The notes beneath the pieces are model-generated. The model saw only the letters and a list, made by a program, of their open reading frames with translations. It had not been told where the DNA came from and did no database searches. This document shows, piece by piece, positions 24,237 through 38,018 of a stretch of DNA of 57,327 bases. This stretch comes from Actinomycetota bacterium (GTDB lineage Bacteria > Actinomycetota > Acidimicrobiia > Spongiisociales > UBA11373), in the NCBI GenBank assembly GCA_016870535.1, contig VGBK01000005.1, forward strand, positions 1 to 57,327, given 5' to 3'. The position numbers and the translations under genes are program-made. Position 1 is the first letter of the stretch; the number at the start of each line of letters is the position of its first letter.

Positions 24237-24308
<72 letters not shown>

Positions 24309-27744: not shown

Positions 27745-28434
27745 ATGCCCGTCCCCGACTTCAACCAGGCCCTGGGCCGCCTAACCGGTTCCCTGGGCGA
27801 CCCCACCCGGCGGGCCATCTACCTCACCGTGCGCGAGTCCGACGACGAGATCACCGCGGCGCGCGTCGCCGATCTCTTCGGCATCCACCCCAACGTGGCA
27901 CGGCACCACCTGGACCGTCTGGTGGCCGACGGCTACCTGCGGGTGCGAGATCGTGACCCCGCCCGTCCGGCAGGGGTAGGCCGTCCGCCCCGGGTCTTCG
28001 AGGCCACCGAGGACGACGTCGCCGTCTCCTACCCGGCTCGCCGCCACGACCTCCTCGCCGAACTCCTGGTGCGGGTGGTGAAGCGCCTCGCTCCCGAGGA
28101 AGGGCCCCGGGTAGCAGAAGAGGTGGGGCAAGCCTACGGAGAGGAACTGGCCGCCGCCATCGGCCTGCCCACCGAGCAGGGCTTCGCCCCGGCCCTGGCG
28201 GCGGTGGCCCGGGCGCTGACCGGCGCCGGCTTCGAGATCACCGCCGACCTCGAGGCGGGCCGCCTGGTGGCGGGGGCTTGCCCCTTCGGGCGCACCGCCG
28301 CCGACCACCCCGAGGTGGTGTGCCGCCTGGACCTGGGCATCGTGAAGGGCCTCATGGCTGCCGCCGGGGCCCCGGCTCGCCGCGTGGTCATCACCCCCCG
28401 GCGGCGCCCCAACCGGCCCTGCGTCGCCTCCTGA
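27745..28434 (+). CDS. ArsR-like HTH transcriptional regulator with C-terminal Cys (COG2345/SufR-like)
   Basis: LGDPTRRAIY, IHPNVARHHLDRL, GRPPRVF, CPF..HPEVVC..C. Confidence 0.85.
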   Translation: MPVPDFNQALGRLTGSLGDPTRRAIYLTVRESDDEITAARVADLFGIHPNVARHHLDRLVADGYLRVRDRDPARPAGVGRPPRVFEATEDDVAVSYPARRHDLLAELLVRVVKRLAPEEGPRVAEEVGQAYGEELAAAIGLPTEQGFAPALAAVARALTGAGFEITADLEAGRLVAGACPFGRTAADHPEVVCRLDLGIVKGLMAAAGAPARRVVITPRRRPNRPCVAS

Positions 28435-28490
28435 AAGGCCGCCGGCACCCGGTTATCCTCCTCCAGCCTGCCCCACGGAGCCTCCTGCCC

Positions 28491-31160
<2,670 letters not shown>

Positions 31161-31248: not shown

Positions 31249-31797
31249 ATGCGCCCCGGTGCCCTCCGCGCCCTGCTCCCCGCCGCCGTCCTCGCCCTGT
31301 CGGCCGCCGCTTGCGGAAGCGCGGCTCCGCAACTCACCGCCCCGGCAGACTCGCTCGCCTCTCCCAGTACCAGCGAGGCCCGCCCGCCTGCCCCGGTCTT
31401 CGAGGTGGCTCTGTTCGACGGCACCAGTTTCAGCCTGACGCGGCACCTGAGCCGGGACGGACGACCGGTGGTGTTGAACCTGTGGGCCTCCTGGTGCCCG
31501 CCGTGCCGCGAGGAGATCCCCCGGATCGAGGCCGCCGCCCGCCGTCATCCCCAGGTGCTCTTCCTCGGGGTTGCCGTCCAGGACGAGCCCGCGGCCGCGG
31601 CGGCGGCGGTGGCCGAACTCGGGGCGACCTATCCGACCGGGGCCGACCTCGACGGCACGTTGGACGCCGCCTTCCCCTCGCCCGGGCTCCCCGCCACCTT
31701 CCTCATCGCCGCCGACGGCACCCTCATCGGGGCACACTTCGGCGCCCTGACGGCCGCCGACATCGAAGCCCTCGTGACCCGCTACCTGGCCGGGTAG
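31249..31797 (+). CDS. TlpA/ResA-family thiol-disulfide oxidoreductase lipoprotein
   Basis: Lipobox-like LSAAAC, VVLNLWASWCPPC, GLPATF. Confidence 0.9.
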   Translation: MRPGALRALLPAAVLALSAAACGSAAPQLTAPADSLASPSTSEARPPAPVFEVALFDGTSFSLTRHLSRDGRPVVLNLWASWCPPCREEIPRIEAAARRHPQVLFLGVAVQDEPAAAAAAVAELGATYPTGADLDGTLDAAFPSPGLPATFLIAADGTLIGAHFGALTAADIEALVTRYLAG

Positions 31798-31805
31798 CGG
31801 CCGCC

Positions 31806-33005
31806 TCAGACCCCGGCGACGCCCCGGCGACGCAGCACTCGGCGGAGGGCGGCGAGCACTGCGGGGTCGTACTCGTAGGCGCTGCCCTGATGGAGGATCT
31901 CCAGCGCGTCGCCGGGTTCCATGCCGCCGCCCACGGCGTAGTCGTAGGCGGTGGCCACCTTCACCACCTGGGCGGCAGGAGACACGCCGGGATCACGCTC
32001 CTCCCCGGGGCGGCGGTAGGGATGGGACGACTGGGCCACCAGCGCCGCTACCGGCTCCAGGGTGGGAGCGGCAGCAACGATGGCGGCGCTCCACCGGGCG
32101 AGGTCCGCCGTGGTGACCACCCGGCCGGGGGTCGGCATCACCCCCGCCATCGCCACCCTCCCGATGTCGGCCAGGAAGGCGGCTTGCTCCACCCGGCGGC
32201 TTGCCTGAGCCCGCATCCCCAGTTCCCCGGTCAGGGCCACCGCCACCTCGGCGGAGCGCTCGGCGTGACCGGGGGGCGAGAGGCCGCCGGCCTCCGGCAC
32301 CTTTCCCAGGACCCGGATCGTCTGCCGATAGGTCAGGTCGCTGGCCGCCAGGCGGCCGAAGGCCAGGTGGGCGAAGCCGTACGGCAGACCCGCCAGGAGC
32401 ACGGCCCAGGCCCCCAGCGCCGGGGCGGTGAGCCCGTAGAGGCTTCCCGCCGCCACCAGCACGAGGTAGACCGGCCACTCGGACAAAGCGGTCCGCCAGA
32501 GCAGCCCGCCGGAGAGCCGCCGCCGCGTGCCGGTCCAGGCGGCGCGCGCCGCCGCCGACGCCAGGTACCAGGCCACCATCGCCGCGACCAACACCGCCAG
32601 CTGCCCCCAGGGACCGCTGCGGTGGGCCACCGGCGCCTCCAGGAGAGCGAAGACGCCCACGAAGCCGGCCAGCCCGGCGGCTTCGCCCGGCACGAGGTCG
32701 GCCGCCTGCCGCTCGCCGAAGCGGAGACGAGCCGCCACCCAGCCCAGAGGCACGCCCATCGCCGCGCCCCACAACAGGGGCACCAGCAGCTGGCTCAGCA
32801 CGGCTGCCGTGGCGACCGCCGGGCCCACCGGCTGCAGCCTCCCGCCGCCGAAGCGCAAGGGGAAGAGGTGCCCCAGGGCGAAGGCGGCGGCGAGGACCAC
32901 CGCGGCCGTTGCCTCCCCGCGCCCGATGGCCGCCGCCAGCCCGGCGGCGCCTACCGCGCCGGCCGCGACCGCTCGCCAGGAGAAGCGCTCAGGCACGGAG
33001 GGCAC
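31806..33005 (-). CDS. Membrane-anchored degenerate HD-GYP domain protein
   Basis: About 6-7 TMs, then GHAERSA, FLADIGR (HD changed to AD), VKVATAYD, YDPAVLAAL. Confidence 0.8.
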   Translation of the reverse strand: MPSVPERFSWRAVAAGAVGAAGLAAAIGRGEATAAVVLAAAFALGHLFPLRFGGGRLQPVGPAVATAAVLSQLLVPLLWGAAMGVPLGWVAARLRFGERQAADLVPGEAAGLAGFVGVFALLEAPVAHRSGPWGQLAVLVAAMVAWYLASAAARAAWTGTRRRLSGGLLWRTALSEWPVYLVLVAAGSLYGLTAPALGAWAVLLAGLPYGFAHLAFGRLAASDLTYRQTIRVLGKVPEAGGLSPPGHAERSAEVAVALTGELGMRAQASRRVEQAAFLADIGRVAMAGVMPTPGRVVTTADLARWSAAIVAAAPTLEPVAALVAQSSHPYRRPGEERDPGVSPAAQVVKVATAYDYAVGGGMEPGDALEILHQGSAYEYDPAVLAALRRVLRRRGVAGV

Positions 33006-34287
33006 GCTCCTTGACCAGGCGGGCCACCTCGGCGGCGCTGGCGTCGTCGGGGGCGCCGTAGGCCTCCCCGCGGCGGGTTATCCCGCCAATGAGCGCCTCG
33101 ACGACCTCCCCGCCGAGGGCGGCGGCCCGCTCCCGCAGCCGGGCGAAGGCCTCAGCCTGGGTCAGAGCGGCCCGATAGGAACGCGTGCTGGTCATCCCGT
33201 CGAAGGAGTCGGCCACCGCCAACACCCGCGCTTCGACAGACCCGCGCCCCCCCACCGCCACCCGATGGGATTCTTCGATGAGGCGCACCGCCGGCGCCAG
33301 CACGTCGATCCCGGCCAGCAGGTCCTCGACCACCCTCATGTGACGGGCCACCGCCGCCTCCTCCGCCGGGCCGAGCGGTTCGGTCCGGCGCAACAGGGCG
33401 GCCGGCACCGCCAGCTTGCCTACGTCGTGGAGGAGGGCGGCGGAGCGCAGGCGCTCCATGCGGCCGGGATCCAGCCCCAACTCCGTCCCGGCGACCGACA
33501 CCAGGTGGAGCACCCGGTCGGTGTGGCCCCGGGTGTACGGATCGAGGGCCTCGACGGCCTTCACGAAGCCGTGCACCGTGTCCAGGTGGGCCCGGCGCAC
33601 CCGGGCGTAGGAGGCGAACCCGACGTGCCCCGCCACGAAAGTCAGGCCGACCAGCGGAAGGATCACCGGCCCCACCAGCAGGTACGCCGCCCCGGCCAGG
33701 CTGCCGACCACGGCCAGCAGCGTCATGGCCAGGTGGTTGGCGCGCAGGGCCGACCACGCCTCCGGCGGCCGGTCCGGGTACAGGCGCCGGGTCATGAAGG
33801 CCACCAGGTAGAAGTTCACCCAGTCGTAGGCCAGGGCGGCGGGGACGGTGGCGGCCAGGATGCGGGGCACGGCGGCCCGGGTCACCGGCCCCGCCGGCAG
33901 CAGCGCCGCCAGGAGCCCCACGCCCACCGTGGAGGAGAGCACCAACTGGCCGAAGTTGGCCACCGGCAGGGTCCAGCGCCGCCGGGCGAAGTAGGAGGGA
34001 TGCACCAGCGCCAGGGCGGCCATCAGCGCCACCGCCAGCACCCCGCTCTGCGGTCCCATCACCACCGCCGTGCCGAAGGCCACCGCCACTGCGGAACTGA
34101 CCAGGAGGCGGTCGCCCACCTCCACGGCGGCGTACTCCAGAGCCACGTAAGCGGCGGCGAGGGCTCCCCACAGCCACAGCGGCCGGGGGAGCGACTGAAA
34201 CCGAACGAGCAAAACGAGCGCCGCCGCGCCGGCGGCGCCCAACACCACCGCGGGGAAGGTGGTCCGGTCCCGTGCTCGTAGGCTCAT
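32989..34287 (-). CDS. Membrane-anchored HD-GYP-like phosphodiesterase (HD retained, GYP loop absent)
   Basis: About 6-7 TMs, then DPYTRGHTDRV, ALLHDVGK, ARVLAVADSFDGMTSTRSYR. Confidence 0.87.
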   Translation of the reverse strand: MSLRARDRTTFPAVVLGAAGAAALVLLVRFQSLPRPLWLWGALAAAYVALEYAAVEVGDRLLVSSAVAVAFGTAVVMGPQSGVLAVALMAALALVHPSYFARRRWTLPVANFGQLVLSSTVGVGLLAALLPAGPVTRAAVPRILAATVPAALAYDWVNFYLVAFMTRRLYPDRPPEAWSALRANHLAMTLLAVVGSLAGAAYLLVGPVILPLVGLTFVAGHVGFASYARVRRAHLDTVHGFVKAVEALDPYTRGHTDRVLHLVSVAGTELGLDPGRMERLRSAALLHDVGKLAVPAALLRRTEPLGPAEEAAVARHMRVVEDLLAGIDVLAPAVRLIEESHRVAVGGRGSVEARVLAVADSFDGMTSTRSYRAALTQAEAFARLRERAAALGGEVVEALIGGITRRGEAYGAPDDASAAEVARLVKERALRA

Positions 34288-34314
34288 ATGGGTAGCGGGC
34301 GCCCGGGTCCCGGC

Positions 34315-34397
34315 CTAACCGATCCTCCAGTTCACCGGAGGCTCGGCAGGCAGCTCGGTGACTCTTCGTCTTCGACGCGGTCGACCTTCCGGCTCAC
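34315..34397 (-). CDS. Candidate small peptide (21 aa as read; 27 aa ending LPAEPPVNWRIG if one base is missing)
   Basis: AAGGGGGT RBS-like motif 6 nt before GTG 34397; lies just upstream of the HD-GYP start. Confidence 0.35.
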
Positions 34398-34733
34398 CTA
34401 CCGACCCCCTTCTTCGAGGCTCGACGCCGGCGCTACTCCGGCGGCGGCGCTCCGCTTCGCTCTTCTCTTGGGGTTTGCTCGTCCGTAGGTTGACCCGGGC
34501 GGCCCGTCTCCGGAACGGCCGTCCGCTCGGGTGGCTCATCGGCAGGATCACCGCCGACCTTCACCCTCTCGCGACCGCTCCTGCTACCCGGCCGGCACGG
34601 GCCGGCCGGGGACACTGTACCCCCGCCGGCCGGGAGTTCGCGGGCGCTCCCTCCCGCCACCCGCCACCGCATGACAGACCGTTGCCGCACCGACTACGCT
34701 ATGTGGCCGGGCGGTGCTGGGGAAGGCGGAGGC

Positions 34734-35348
34734 ATGGACTTCAGGGAACTCGAGGAGACCCTCGCCCGGTTGCCCTCGGTGCACGCGGTGCGGGTGAGCG
34801 GCGACCGCTCCCGGGTGCGCGAGGTCCACGTGCTCGCCGCCCCCGACAAGGCGGCCAAGCAGGTAGTCCGCGACGTGCAGACGCTGGCCCTGGCCCGCTT
34901 CGGGGTAGACCTGGACCGCCGCATCATCTCGGTGGTGCAGATCGGGCCGGACCGCATCCGTCCCGAGGAGGACCGCCCGGCCATCCTCGGGGTGCACGAG
35001 ATCCCCGAAGGGGCCCGCACCACGGTGGCGGTGTCCCTGCGCTGGCACGGAGAGGAGTACTCCGGCACGGCCACCGGGCCGGCCGCCGCCTCCGCTCGAC
35101 TGCGCCTGGTGGGCGAGGCGGCCCTTCGAGCGGTGGAGCGCATCGTGGGCGACGAGGCCCTGGCGCTCGACGCCGTCGGCGCCCCGGCAGTAGGGATGCG
35201 CCGGGTGATCGTGGTGGTGGTGCTCAGCACCGGGTCGCGCGGCGAGGCGGTGGCAGTGGGGTCCGCGCTGAGCCAGGGAGACGACGCCGAGGCCACGGTG
35301 CGCGCCGTGCTCGACGCCCTCAACCGCCGCATCGTTCGCCCCGACTGA
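34734..35348 (+). CDS. Conserved hypothetical protein (EVHVLA...KQVVRDVQ...ISVVQ N-domain; C-terminus resembling the LeuA allosteric domain)
   Basis: 204 aa with GGAAGG RBS; ends ATVRAVLDALNRR; TACGCT -10 at 34695-34700. Confidence 0.82.
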   Translation: MDFRELEETLARLPSVHAVRVSGDRSRVREVHVLAAPDKAAKQVVRDVQTLALARFGVDLDRRIISVVQIGPDRIRPEEDRPAILGVHEIPEGARTTVAVSLRWHGEEYSGTATGPAAASARLRLVGEAALRAVERIVGDEALALDAVGAPAVGMRRVIVVVVLSTGSRGEAVAVGSALSQGDDAEATVRAVLDALNRRIVRPD

Positions 35349-35375: not shown

Positions 35376-36980
35376 GTGCCCTTCCCGGTGCCCGCTCCCT
35401 CCCGCCCCGCCGTCTCCGCCGTAACCGGTCGAGGCGGAGTGGCGGTGACCCCGCACCACCTGGCCACCGCCGCCGCCGTGGAGATGCTGGCGGCCGGGGG
35501 GAATGCCGCCGACGCGGCGATCGCCGCCAACGCCGTGCAGGGCATGGTCGACCCCACCACCTGCGGGCCGGGAGGCGATCTCTTCGCCCTGGTGCACCGG
35601 CCCGGGGCTTCCGTCCCGGACGCCCTCAACGCCTCCGGCCGGGCCGGATCGGGGTTGAGCGCCTCCGCGCTGCGAGTCGCCGGCCACGCTCGGGTTCCGC
35701 ATGACGCCCCCGAAGCGGTGACGGTGCCCGGCTGCGTGGATGGCTGGCTGGCCCTGGCGACCCGGCACGGCAGCCTGCCGCTCACCGCCTTGCTCGCCCC
35801 CGCCATCCGCCTGGGCGAGGAGGGCTTCCCCGTCTCCGCCGACCTGGCCGACGCCCTCGCGCGGCTTCACCCCAGGCTGGCGGCACAGCCTTCGGCATCC
35901 GACCTCTACCCCGCCGGGCTCCCGGCCCGCACGGGCACCACCCTGCGCCGCCCGCTCCTGGCGGCCACCCTGCGGTCCATCGGCGACGGAGGCCGCGAGG
36001 CCTTCTACGGAGGAGAGCCCGGCATCGCCCTCACTGCGGTGACCGGCGGCGGCATCAACGCCGCCGATTTCGCCCGGTCTCAGGCCGAGTGGATGCCACC
36101 CATCGGCCTGGACGTCTTCGGCCGGCGCTTCTGGACGGTGCCGCCCAACAGCCAGGGCTACCTGACCGGGGCGGCCTCCTGGCTCCTGGAGCGGGCTCTC
36201 CGCTGCGCCGATCCGGGCGAGGCCGCCTTCCACCATGCCGTGATCGAGTGCTACCGGGCGGTGGCCGCCGAAGGCGACCACCTGGTGGCCGACCCGGGGC
36301 ACCTGCCCCTGCCTGCCGAGCGCCTCCTGGAACCCGAGCGGCTTCGCTCCCTCCTCGCCTCGATCCGCCCCGATCGCGCCGCCCACCATCCCCCACCCTC
36401 GCCCGAGCCCGGAGGTACCGCCTACCTGGCGGTGCTCGACGCCGCCGGCATGGGGGTCTCGCTCATCCAGTCCAACTTCACCGGCATCGGCAGCGGACTG
36501 GCGGCCGGAGCCACCGGCGTCTGGCTCCACAACCGGGGCGCCTGCTTCACTCTGCAGCCCGGCCACCCGAACGAGGCGGGGCCGGGGAAGCGCCCCCGGC
36601 ACACCCTCTCTCCCACCTTGTGGACCCGGGAGGGGCACCTCGCCCTGCTGCTGGGCACCCGGGGCGGCTACCAGCAACCCCAGTACCTGCTGCAGGCGGC
36701 GGCTCTGCTGTTCGCCGCCGGGCTGTCCCCGGCCGAGGCCCAGGCCCACCCGCGTTGGCACCTCGAGAGCGGGCCGGGAACCGGGTCACTCGTCGTCGCG
36801 GAATCCCGGATGCCGGAAGATCTCGTCGCCGGGCTGCGCCGTCTGGGGCACCCGGTGGCCGCGGGCCCGGCCCTGGCCCCCGGCTGGGGTCCGGTTTCCA
36901 TGATCGCGGTCGCCGCCGACGGGACTCGCACCGCGGCCGCCGACCCCCGCGTGGCGACGGCGCAGGCCGCCGCCCACTGA
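35376..36980 (+). CDS. Gamma-glutamyltransferase family protein (cytoplasmic YwrD-type)
   Basis: GGNAADAAIA, GPGGDLF, LNASG, PPNSQG, GGTAYL (Thr nucleophile), PGKRPRHTLSP. Confidence 0.92.
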   Translation: MPFPVPAPSRPAVSAVTGRGGVAVTPHHLATAAAVEMLAAGGNAADAAIAANAVQGMVDPTTCGPGGDLFALVHRPGASVPDALNASGRAGSGLSASALRVAGHARVPHDAPEAVTVPGCVDGWLALATRHGSLPLTALLAPAIRLGEEGFPVSADLADALARLHPRLAAQPSASDLYPAGLPARTGTTLRRPLLAATLRSIGDGGREAFYGGEPGIALTAVTGGGINAADFARSQAEWMPPIGLDVFGRRFWTVPPNSQGYLTGAASWLLERALRCADPGEAAFHHAVIECYRAVAAEGDHLVADPGHLPLPAERLLEPERLRSLLASIRPDRAAHHPPPSPEPGGTAYLAVLDAAGMGVSLIQSNFTGIGSGLAAGATGVWLHNRGACFTLQPGHPNEAGPGKRPRHTLSPTLWTREGHLALLLGTRGGYQQPQYLLQAAALLFAAGLSPAEAQAHPRWHLESGPGTGSLVVAESRMPEDLVAGLRRLGHPVAAGPALAPGWGPVSMIAVAADGTRTAAADPRVATAQAAAH

Positions 36981-37937
36981 GGGCCGCACCGCCGCGCCCC
37001 CACCGTCGCCCGGGCCGTCCGCCGCGGGCGCCAGAGCCAGTCGGCGCAGCGCCATCTCCGCCTGCAGCCGCGAGCGCCGACCCATCCAGGCGAAGCCGAC
37101 CGCCGCCGCCAGCAGGACCGCGGTCGCCGCCACGCCGGCAATCCACCCCTTGGATCCCCCGGGAATGGCCCCCGACTCGTCGAAGAGGGCCTGTCGCCAG
37201 CCCTCGTCGAGAGCCGCCAGACGGTCCGGATCTGGAGAGGCCAGGTAGCCCGCCCCCTCGGCGGCCACCACGAAGGAGGTGAAGTCCCCCGCTCCCCCGT
37301 AGCCGAACTCCGGACGCCACAGGATGGGATCGGCCAGGGTGCTGATGGCCCAGGGGAACGGGGGCCACGGCTCCCGCAGCCCGATGTTCTGCCTGAGGAA
37401 GATGCTGTGGATGGCCTCGGTGGTGCCGTCCAGCCGGCCGAGGTACCAGCCGATGACGTCGTCGGCGAAGGGCTGCGGGTAGTCGCCGCCGCTCGCCCGC
37501 CAGAGGGCGATGTGGATCAGTCCCACGACCCCGGCATCCTGCAGGTAGCGGGTCATCCAGGCGGAGACGGCCACCGCCCCCAACTCCCCAAAAGCCACCG
37601 CGCGCAGCGGGTGGTCCGAGTACCAGCCCAGCGCCTCCGCATCGAGGGCTATCTCGTCGGCGAACAGACAGACCTCCACCCCGTCCAGAGGTCCGATGTC
37701 GGCCTCCAGCCACTGCACGATCAACGAGAACTCGCCGGCGAAGCGCTCGGTCATCTCGACGTTCACCCCCGCGCCGCGCACCACCACCGGCCCGGTGCGG
37801 GCGGCGGTGTCGAAGGCCGCCTCCGGGAAAGCCGCGGCGCAGCCGCCCGGCCGGAACGGCCTGCCGGCCTGGGCAACTGCCGGTACCGCGACGAGGATCA
37901 GCCCGAGCAGGGTGAGCAGGGGAAGGAGCCGGCGCAT
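36786..37937 (-). CDS. Hypothetical exported, C-terminally anchored protein
   Basis: Signal peptide MRRLLPLLTLLGLILVAVPAVAQA and TM WIAGVAATAVLLAAAVGFAW; tail overlaps the GGT 3' end. Confidence 0.72.
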   Translation of the reverse strand: MRRLLPLLTLLGLILVAVPAVAQAGRPFRPGGCAAAFPEAAFDTAARTGPVVVRGAGVNVEMTERFAGEFSLIVQWLEADIGPLDGVEVCLFADEIALDAEALGWYSDHPLRAVAFGELGAVAVSAWMTRYLQDAGVVGLIHIALWRASGGDYPQPFADDVIGWYLGRLDGTTEAIHSIFLRQNIGLREPWPPFPWAISTLADPILWRPEFGYGGAGDFTSFVVAAEGAGYLASPDPDRLAALDEGWRQALFDESGAIPGGSKGWIAGVAATAVLLAAAVGFAWMGRRSRLQAEMALRRLALAPAADGPGDGGGAAVRPSVGGGLRRRHAGVGGRGASPVGGDRDHGNRTPAGGQGRARGHRVPQTAQPGDEIFRHPGFRDDE

Positions 37938-38018
37938 GTGGATCTCCGACTGGGTCACCCGTCATGCTACCGGTCCCGCGCCCGCGCCTCCGGGGTACAC
38001 TCGTGCCTGGAGGCTCCG

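Follow-up and report, generated by a model that had tools for sequence, protein, structure and literature searches.

What occupies the 446 nt between a pair of membrane HD-GYP genes and a divergently oriented gene of no named family, and what links the genes on its two sides? The question is raised by positions 31806 to 35348 of contig VGBK01000005.1 (assembly GCA_016870535.1), from an Actinomycetota bacterium of the class Acidimicrobiia. We analyzed positions 1 to 57327 of this contig, and this whole stretch is called the window here. On the minus strand, two overlapping genes encode HD-GYP1 (432 amino acids [aa]; 32989-34287) and HD-GYP2 (399 aa; 31806-33005). On the plus strand, an open reading frame (ORF) at 34734-35348 encodes a 204-aa accessory protein, which we call the partner. 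The gap between HD-GYP1 and the partner is 34288-34733. A first-pass annotation, made from the sequence alone, had reported both the gap and a divergent protein without a family, and both were confirmed. It did not recognize the gap as a structured RNA leader.

We found that the locus belongs to a cassette with four constant parts: the partner, a leader that combines the motif AGCGRAGCGG with a hairpin, a short ORF, and an HD-GYP-family membrane protein of the MASE9 type. To judge from the sequences, the Actinomycetota cassette adds an HD-GYP paralogue that appears catalytically degenerate; most lineages also have a membrane protein of the DUF5317 type. In our judgment, the chances are about even that the window holds a widespread cassette without a name, in its Acidimicrobiia form and under leader-controlled, translationally coupled expression, with the partner as a ligand-sensing regulator. 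We report what we observed of the anatomy, conservation, covariation, synteny, and fold of this locus and then weigh how it might work.

The window genome (G000; 2.57 Mb in 322 contigs, 96% complete) has a G+C content of 72 to 78% around the locus, and the nearest named relatives of the window proteins come from Acidimicrobiia metagenome-assembled genomes. The Acidimicrobiia family of this genome is called the window family. An order-level set (n = 15) covered eleven further families and two more genomes of the window family. Bacillota relatives were sought with a single Caldanaerobacter protein; wide partner alignments had no sufficiently conserved stretch. Some of the genomes counted are unpublished. 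G028 (locus L025) and G039 (L024) entered the tallies of partner identity, order-level synteny, and DUF5317, G039 also entered the whole-genome tally of the RNA model described below, and G242, G258, G287, G385, and G411 are within the Actinomycetota 201-genome partner tally. No conclusion rests on any of them.

HD-GYP1 lies beside the partner in 34/34 Acidimicrobiia loci, with 19/19 in the window family, where the two genes are divergent, and 15/15 at the order level. The same adjacency was found in 18/20 loci of other Actinomycetota families, where the layout is either divergent or has hpf, partner, HD-GYP1, and HD-GYP2 in a row. In Bacillota, an HD-GYP gene adjoins the partner on its downstream side in 26/30 loci, and the four misses are two contig ends, one N-masked sequence, and one locus without an HD-GYP gene. 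Thus, the co-localization that the first-pass annotation proposed to score was found in all three samples. Its claim that the partner family recurs in other phyla beside membrane HD-GYP genes with small upstream peptides was also borne out for Bacillota, where a small ORF accompanies the loci as well (27/30; see below). Tandem HD-GYP pairs, which it had described as an actinobacterial feature, are the rule at order-level and other-family Actinomycetota loci. HD-GYP2 follows HD-GYP1 in 12/15 order-level loci, and the other three stop at contig ends.

The partner was present in 60/201 sampled Actinomycetota genomes and in 90/201 sampled genomes of Caldanaerobacter's phylum, Bacillota. Within Bacillota, it was found in 60/63 genomes with a MASE9 match versus 30/138 without one. 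DUF5317 was detected in 72/201 Bacillota genomes, and the partner in 64 of these 72. Where DUF5317 could be placed, it was usually 2 to 2.5 kb from the partner gene. It was also detected in 15/16 genomes of other families of the window's order, mostly just beyond HD-GYP2, and was not found in 25/25 window-family genomes (completeness, 69 to 98%). In Bacillota, the two loci that have the partner with no adjacent HD-GYP gene and no small ORF (L056 and L070) are in genomes without a DUF5317 match, as is L061, which has the small ORF. From these sequences, it appears that three features disappeared together in the window family: DUF5317, the GYP loop of HD-GYP1, and the hydrophobic stretch of the small ORF. 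The leader motif, the last small-ORF codons, both HD-GYP genes, and the partner are retained. As a separate observation, MASE9 and DUF5317 were both matched in Thermus thermophilus and Thermotoga maritima, among 14 control genomes. Therefore, the cassette may extend to Deinococcota and Thermotogota.

The leader RNA and its small open reading frame

Conserved blocks, covariation, and folding energy support a structured 5' leader of the HD-GYP operon of about 320 nt, at 34288-34607 on the minus strand. An alignment of 20 window-family gaps contained long invariant blocks (L021 and L035 were omitted from the leader alignments because of long insertions). RNAalifold gave three helices on the minus strand in which 11 pairs were changed on both sides. 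For the 25 pairs of these helices, standard pairs filled 95.2% of the cells, compared with 90.9% in shuffles and 31 to 46% when the columns of the 3' strands were slid, and all five covariation measures exceeded 500/500 shuffles. The helices had 20 G-U cells and 7 A-C cells, and this excess favors the minus strand for the leader. The single-sequence fold had a minimum free energy of -177.5 kcal/mol (z = -4.75). A stand-alone small RNA on the plus strand was considered and rejected; its consensus fold was -25.8, compared with -35.1 for the minus strand, and the G-U excess and the conserved reading frame are also on the minus strand. Rfam 15 returned nothing meaningful at E ≤ 5 in 34100-34900 and no family match on Bacillota leaders.

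The presumed 5' end of the leader is a GC-rich hairpin at 34590-34607 (helix 1; 5 compensatory pairs, 70% of cells paired). It is followed by the 5' strand of helix P1, GGGUAGC (34583-34589), which pairs with GCUACCC at 34290-34296 (93.6 to 95% paired, 3 compensatory pairs) and ends 2 nt upstream of the HD-GYP1 AUG. Helix P2 pairs GGGCCGCCCGGGUC at 34492-34505 with GACCCGGGCGCCC at 34297-34309 (about 95% paired, 5 compensatory pairs). Its 3' strand lies between the stop of the mini-ORF described below and the HD-GYP1 start, where it fills most of a 27-nt spacer in which no Shine-Dalgarno sequence (GGAG, GAGG, or AGGA) was found. CCCGGG blocks stand at P2-equivalent places in other families of the order. 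Two further helices, both from the single-sequence fold, concern the small ORF. In helix 9 (146-155 with 240-249; 74% of cells paired), CCUACGG pairs with CGGUAGG of the short-ORF ribosome-binding block. The mini-ORF itself is covered by a hairpin, helix 18, in which 77% of cells are paired, compensatory change occurs in 7 pairs, and G-U cells are frequent.

The gap also holds two candidate promoter elements, which the first-pass annotation had described as back-to-back -10 boxes. On the plus strand, a candidate partner promoter (TGACAG, 17 nt, TACGCT) lies at 34672-34700. Its -10 box (34695-34700) is kept in 20/20 window-family loci, as TACCCT in one of them, and this half of the description stands. 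On the minus strand, TACAGT at 34614-34619 would be the -10 box of the leader/HD-GYP transcript; this half fared less well, as discussed below. In seven window-family loci with longer gaps (L012, L013, L019, L020, L021, L035, and L036), there is also a GC hairpin (GGCGGACG...CGUCCGC) followed by a U run. This hairpin belongs to the strand of the HD-GYP genes, lies upstream of P1 in the interval from the partner promoter to the leader, and resembles a terminator or an attenuator. The window is without it.

Many tiny ORFs exist in the gap, as the first-pass annotation had said. They are expected at 72% G+C, and one frame alone is conserved: W-[RK]-[IV]-G-stop on the minus strand, with its stop codon at 34315-34317. 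In the window, this is a mini-ORF of GUG AAC UGG AGG AUC GGU UAG (M-N-W-R-I-G-stop; 34315-34335), with 27 nt between its stop and the HD-GYP1 AUG. In 20/22 window-family loci, the W is preceded at a distance of 2 to 3 codons by a start codon in frame (ATG or GTG). Among 34 loci, all four third bases are used in the Gly codon, and the stop is TAG in 18, TGA in 12, and TAA in 4. The basic codon after the W also varies (AAG, CGG, AGG, AGA, or CGT). This pattern of variation is a coding signature. Because the stop codon itself varies, readthrough recoding is ruled out, and we rejected the idea that the frame is a recoded N-terminal extension of HD-GYP1.

In the genus of the window, the mini-ORF is preceded by a genus-specific frame of 21 codons with a GUG start, sORF-A (34332-34397, minus strand). 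Its UGA overlaps the mini-ORF GUG (GUGA) in 5/5 loci of the genus. A Shine-Dalgarno-like AAGGGGG (34405-34411, minus strand) lies 7 nt upstream of the sORF-A GUG, in the invariant block GAAGGG..CGGUAGGUGA, which is paired with CCUACGG in the folded leader. Neither MNWRIG nor the 21-aa product of sORF-A is hydrophobic, and no membrane helix was found in the small ORFs of the window. Throughout the window family, the small ORFs have either 6 codons or 20 to 27 non-hydrophobic codons.

The small ORFs of relatives are of the membrane type. In Caldanaerobacter, the partner and HD-GYP genes are separated by a 27-codon ORF that has a Shine-Dalgarno sequence and encodes one hydrophobic helix ending in AGGANLTWH. 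An unannotated membrane peptide of about 25 aa (consensus ..K..LAL..LVLAGGA.F[KR]W(G)) is encoded in 27/30 Bacillota loci, and other Acidimicrobiia families carry a membrane-type small ORF too, such as MKAKVARFIAIASSLSALIVAGAASFKVG in L028. A collection of 15 billion proteins contained 2/10 of the membrane peptides, both unnamed. The small peptides had no meaningful NCBIfam match and no Pfam family. From this comparison, the mini-ORF appears to be a remnant of the cassette's small peptide gene. The scan of upstream gaps for small ORFs that the first-pass annotation had suggested therefore yielded a membrane peptide in Bacillota and other Acidimicrobiia families and a frame of six codons in the window. 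For the window itself, a membrane peptide was not supported, as this frame is not hydrophobic; DUF5317 was not found either, and HD-GYP1 is without its GYP loop. A type I toxin-antitoxin system, with a small hydrophobic peptide and a fold-back mRNA, was rejected because this is a fixed locus with vertical inheritance and because the peptide has here lost its hydrophobic part. A variant of the small ORF was seen in L015 and L016, where a G-W-K-I-G unit is tandemly duplicated at its end. A 1-nt change removed the stop of the first copy, so that the frame now reads ...VGWKIGSPIDGWKIG-stop.

Upstream of the small ORF is the RNA motif that recurs across phyla. In the window, it consists of AGCGAAGCGGA and a hairpin with AGUAGCG in its loop (34415-34464, minus strand). 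AGCGRAGCG was found in 35/35 Acidimicrobiia gaps, about 60 nt upstream of the short ORF. In Bacillota, AGCGNAGCG occurs downstream of the partner in 19/30 loci and close variants, such as GAGCGGAAG, in several others, and these leaders have 2 to 6 AGCGG(A) copies ahead of the hairpin. A hairpin (dG ≤ -5) follows the motif in 54/54 instances, with AGC in the loop in 29/54 and UAG variants in others. For a MAFFT alignment of the motif across phyla (42/54 instances), RNAalifold gave no consensus pairs. Therefore, the cross-phylum motif was judged by folding each sequence and by R1, a covariance model built from the 20 window-family sequences alone.

R1 placed the motif as expected both in Acidimicrobiia of other families and in further Actinomycetota classes and was weaker in Bacillota (E values of 1.6e-3 in L063, 5e-3 in L058, and 0.04 in L044). 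The window genome has a single R1 match, at the motif (E = 4.7e-17). Across the whole genomes of 41 relatives, 22 window-family genomes had one strong match (≥45 bits) each at the cassette. One genome had a second strong match on another contig, one genome of the family scored 31.6 bits at the cassette, and all other matches were ≤27 bits. Most of the strong matches are training sequences; what is informative is that they are unique within a genome. The two genomes of the genus that has no full-length partner had weak matches only. The word AGCGRAGCGG alone was not enriched in the window genome (43 occurrences versus about 39 expected), so that only the combination of motif and hairpin is unique. 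As a control for specificity, 12 MASE9 genes that are not beside a partner had no R1 match (best E of 1.3, filters off) and no upstream AGCG motif, and an LAGGA-type small ORF was missing upstream of 12/12.

CsrA and RsmA bind GGA sites in repeat-motif leaders. The leaders described here likewise repeat a short motif, with AGCGG present 2 to 6 times, once in a hairpin loop, and next to a ribosome-binding site. However, the motif is different, and the neighboring partner is acidic.

The membrane HD-GYP pair and the partner

The first-pass description of an overlapping pair of multi-transmembrane HD-GYP-family genes was correct. The genes overlap by 17 nt, and by a crude hydropathy scan the N-terminal ~220 residues of either protein contain five or more hydrophobic segments. 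Against the Pfam HD_5 profile (PF13487; cutoff, 27.2 bits), HD-GYP1 scored 69.1 bits, which is over the cutoff, and HD-GYP2 scored 23.3 bits, which is under it. HD-GYP1 has a MASE9-like N terminus and an intact HD box (LLHDVGK), whereas the HD-GYP-like domain of HD-GYP2 is degenerate. The HD box of the window HD-GYP2 reads FLADIGR, with AD in place of HD, although HD is retained in most HD-GYP2 orthologues. An alignment with a Caldanaerobacter MASE9-HD-GYP protein, which has HHEWYNGSGYP, showed that the HHxxDGxGYP loop of HD-GYP1 is replaced by a deletion. The loop is gone in 3/3 full-length window-family sequences, and in other families it was found, as HHxx[DN]GxGY[GH], in 9/11 HD-GYP1 sequences. 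HD-GYP2 was without the HH/GYP region in 14/14 sequences. On this basis, a loop-less HD-GYP1 and a catalytically poor HD-GYP2 may bind a nucleotide rather than hydrolyze it. The window genome has three GGDEF matches and two DAC matches (one cut by a contig end), which suggests that both cyclic di-GMP and cyclic di-AMP can be made.

The window HD-GYP1 had no match to the MASE9 profile (PF20972) at E ≤ 0.1. However, 4/14 HD-GYP1 orthologues matched it (best E, 2.3e-8), and residues 55 to 410 of the window protein aligned with the Caldanaerobacter MASE9-HD-GYP protein by tblastn. The HD-GYP proteins are divergent members of this known kind. Its representatives include the phosphodiesterases TM1467 of T. 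maritima and HdgA/Vnz_24090 of S. venezuelae (Galperin and Chou, bioRxiv 10.1101/2021.11.05.467447). They have an integral-membrane N terminus and an HD_5/HD-GYP domain, as HD-GYP1 does, but the window protein falls short of the MASE9 profile and is without the HHExxDGxGYP loop. The portion of that preprint on which we draw names no known ligand for MASE9, has experimental work on one member only, and mentions no accessory protein, small ORF, leader, or DUF5317 for these proteins.

Within the first 25 codons of HD-GYP1 is a terminator-like hairpin (34215-34241, minus strand) of 12 pairs, 10 of them G-C, followed by UUUUG. Three overlapping terminator-like sites were found here, compared with 0.2 expected in shuffles. 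This hairpin may act as a terminator that responds to translation, or it may result from the run of Ala, Gly, and Leu codons.

The partner is 72 to 97% identical within the window family and 42 to 63% identical within the order, and it is better conserved than HD-GYP1 (41 to 77%) or the gamma-glutamyltransferase (GGT) encoded next to it (57 to 74%). It had no Pfam or NCBIfam match at E ≤ 0.1, LeuA_dimer (PF08502) included, and a PDB profile search with the partner alignment gave no sequence match at E ≤ 5. These searches also revealed no helix-turn-helix and no known RNA-binding family. An exhaustive search found 1,618 cluster representatives at E ≤ 1e-3, mostly of 205 to 235 aa. Those with names are each a "hypothetical protein" of Caldanaerobacter, Alkaliphilus, or Zhaonella, and in ten longer members Pfam revealed no domain that would account for the family. 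Its members are acidic (median isoelectric point, 5.3 to 5.8).

An AlphaFold2 model of the partner (mean predicted local distance difference test score, 89.6) has an alpha-beta-beta-alpha-beta domain at residues 1 to 70, a low-confidence linker, and a domain of two beta-beta-beta-alpha repeats at residues 83 to 195. The best Foldseek matches were the regulatory domains of M. tuberculosis LeuA (E, 5e-6 to 2e-4) and of Leptospira citramalate synthase (LiCMS; target-normalized template-modeling score, 0.46 to 0.51), and there were weaker matches to dsRBD, RAD52, and PUR folds. As modeled, the C-terminal domain of the partner has the LeuA regulatory-domain fold, that is, the two beta-beta-beta-alpha repeats of the LeuA and citramalate synthase regulatory domains (PDB 1SR9, 3FIG, and 3F6G/3F6H). 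Unlike the LeuA domain, the partner is not fused to a synthase, it has an extra N-terminal alpha-beta-beta-alpha-beta domain, and there is no sequence match between the two. The C-terminal domain also occurs in stand-alone paralogues of about 130 aa that are 39 to 48% identical and are often two in tandem. One is in the window genome, directly downstream of a large ORF without an assigned family (G000:C52:6891-7313; L002:1504-1923), and relatives have tandem pairs (for example, G018:C4:20806-21585).

How the cassette might work

In the reading that we prefer, the AGCGRAGCGG-hairpin domain, by whatever acts on it, would set access to the ribosome-binding site of the short ORF, which is paired in one leader helix. 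P1 and P2 cover the 30 nt before the HD-GYP1 AUG, a start codon without its own Shine-Dalgarno sequence. Ribosomes on the short ORF or ORFs would run to the UAG and melt P2 and P1, and the opened helices would permit translation of HD-GYP1 and the overlapping HD-GYP2. We give this translational coupling of the short ORF to HD-GYP1 just short of an even chance. The partner would be the cytoplasmic ligand-sensing regulator of the cassette, with the leader, the HD-GYP proteins, or something else as its target; a ligand-binding regulator is the simplest reading of an acidic protein with this fold and so constant a place beside the HD-GYP genes. In coupling and attenuation leaders of the ermC type, a short ORF likewise ends near a main start that is buried in structure. 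The same is reported for the upstream ORF of the mgtA region (PMC8092293). The cassette differs from these leaders in that its short ORF appears to descend from a conserved membrane-peptide gene and in that the burying helices span about 200 to 290 nt.

Several observations weigh against this reading. TACnnT at the minus-strand -10 site is common to just 7/22 aligned window-family sequences. A strict sigma-70 scan of 34100-34900 returned 0 sites; it missed both promoters, and it is the minus-strand miss that counts here. Conservation is poor for several helices in the single-sequence fold (32 to 58% of cells paired). The mini-ORF has no visible Shine-Dalgarno sequence and in this genus is reached only through the GUGA stop-start overlap. 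The acidity of the partner speaks against direct RNA binding. In addition, the partner also keeps other constant neighbors, GGT here and hpf in Bacillota. Finally, the co-loss of parts in one lineage is one event and is therefore a lead, not a test.

The first-pass annotation had instead proposed a heterodimeric HD-GYP1/HD-GYP2 membrane sensor with the small peptide as its ligand or modulator and the partner as its output, which we now consider unlikely. Small membrane proteins such as MgrB and SafA modulate the membrane sensor PhoQ. The ~25- to 30-aa single-helix peptide of relatives is likewise encoded directly before a membrane sensor enzyme (in 27/30 Bacillota loci and in other Acidimicrobiia families). 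The HD-GYP genes keep their tandem arrangement, with the partner always next to them, and DUF5317 co-occurs with the cassette, since 64/72 DUF5317-positive Bacillota genomes have the partner. However, the window ORF encodes no membrane helix, and MgrB and SafA serve here as an analogy. The window family has neither a hydrophobic segment in its peptide nor a detectable DUF5317, and only the last four small-ORF codons and the stop are conserved, which fits a role in cis. No test gave support for protein contact. A complex prediction for the partner with residues 225 to 432 of HD-GYP1 and 212 to 399 of HD-GYP2, made with alignments, scored 0.00, which is evidence neither way. It is also improbable, in our estimate, that the partner itself is what represses or activates the short ORF/HD-GYP operon, by binding the leader's AGCGG repeats in RNA or DNA form. 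The partner gene abuts the leader in both divergent and co-directional layouts. Motif and partner co-occur (the motif was in 0/12 partner-less MASE9 genes), and strong R1 matches are missing from the sole window-family genus that has no full-length partner. The partner has two beta-beta-beta-alpha repeats and weak dsRBD, RAD52, and PUR matches, and the motif is itself repeated. Set against this are the acidic family, best fold matches that are allosteric domains binding small molecules, and the lack of a helix-turn-helix or known RNA-binding family among the searches above.

The leader could also act with the partner uninvolved. If the AGCGRAGCGG-hairpin domain were a riboswitch aptamer, for example for the nucleotide bound or degraded by the HD-GYP proteins, it would control the short-ORF ribosome-binding site. 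Invariant unpaired nucleotides are flanked by covarying helices beside a sequestered ribosome-binding site, and the motif spans two phyla, has one copy per genome, and belongs to no known Rfam family. However, the repeat number in Bacillota is variable, as would be less usual for an aptamer than for an array of protein-binding sites, and the length and loop of the hairpin vary, so that we regard an aptamer as quite unlikely. Very unlikely, in our opinion, is a functional tie of the partner to its co-directional neighbor (GGT here, hpf in Bacillota), with HD-GYP adjacency resulting from a shared intergenic control region. GGT does follow the partner in 15/19 window-family and 13/15 order-level loci, by 27 nt in the window, hpf precedes it in 25/30 Bacillota loci, and the partner lacks an adjacent HD-GYP gene in L056, L070, L085, and L090. 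Nevertheless, both neighbors are lineage specific, whereas the HD-GYP adjacency survives inversion of the gene order and spans two phyla.

Returning to leader-controlled expression with a ligand-sensing partner, we tentatively suggest, with somewhat less than even confidence, that the cassette is an unrecognized regulatory layer of MASE9-type HD-GYP phosphodiesterases in Actinomycetota and Bacillota. It would combine a new class of cis-acting RNA (AGCGG repeats and a UAGCG-loop hairpin), a membrane peptide of about 25 aa, DUF5317, and a partner of LeuA fold that reads a cytoplasmic metabolite, and the window family would have its minimal version. If this is true, the RNA, the last small-ORF codons, and the partner would emerge as the regulatory core, as these are kept in the minimal version. 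The reduced form in the window is useful because it separates the parts that were lost together (membrane peptide, DUF5317, and GYP loop) from those always kept (leader motif, last small-ORF codons, and partner). The input to membrane HD-GYP enzymes is an open question, and the cassette gives it testable handles. It is present in about 30 to 45% of the genomes sampled in two phyla, and three of its parts, the partner, the small ORF, and the leader, are unnamed in Pfam, NCBIfam, and Rfam. We found no description of the cassette in the literature on MASE9, DUF5317, or HD-GYP proteins with a small ORF or leader peptide (supplements were outside the scope of this search).

Genes around the cassette

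The GGT gene of the window (35376-36980, plus strand; Pfam G_glu_transpept, E = 8e-105) is a lineage-specific neighbor of the partner. Downstream of it, a 390-aa ORF on the minus strand (36786-37958) had no Pfam or NCBIfam family. On the other side of the cassette, a TlpA/DsbE-like thiol-disulfide oxidoreductase is encoded on the plus strand (31249-31797), convergent with HD-GYP2, and is preceded by an ORF that reads by eye like an aconitase (28278-31160, plus strand). One tRNA gene (24237-24308, plus strand) was the sole Rfam match at gathering score in the window.

Some Bacillota neighborhoods also contained recognizable elements. In four loci, matches to the Rfam cspA thermoregulator lie upstream of hpf, at 31 to 71 bits and therefore under the gathering score of 78 bits (L048:158-497, L058:2906-3316, L055:3141-3516, and L051:289-712). 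The gene order at these loci is cold-shock gene, hpf, partner, small ORF, and HD-GYP. In Caldanaerobacter (L041:8680-12622), a gene for a 3H/HTH_11 regulator comes next after the cassette, and beyond it are a 186-aa ORF that matches no family and secA. Its neighbors hpf and secA suggest that the cassette was inserted in an hpf...secA region.

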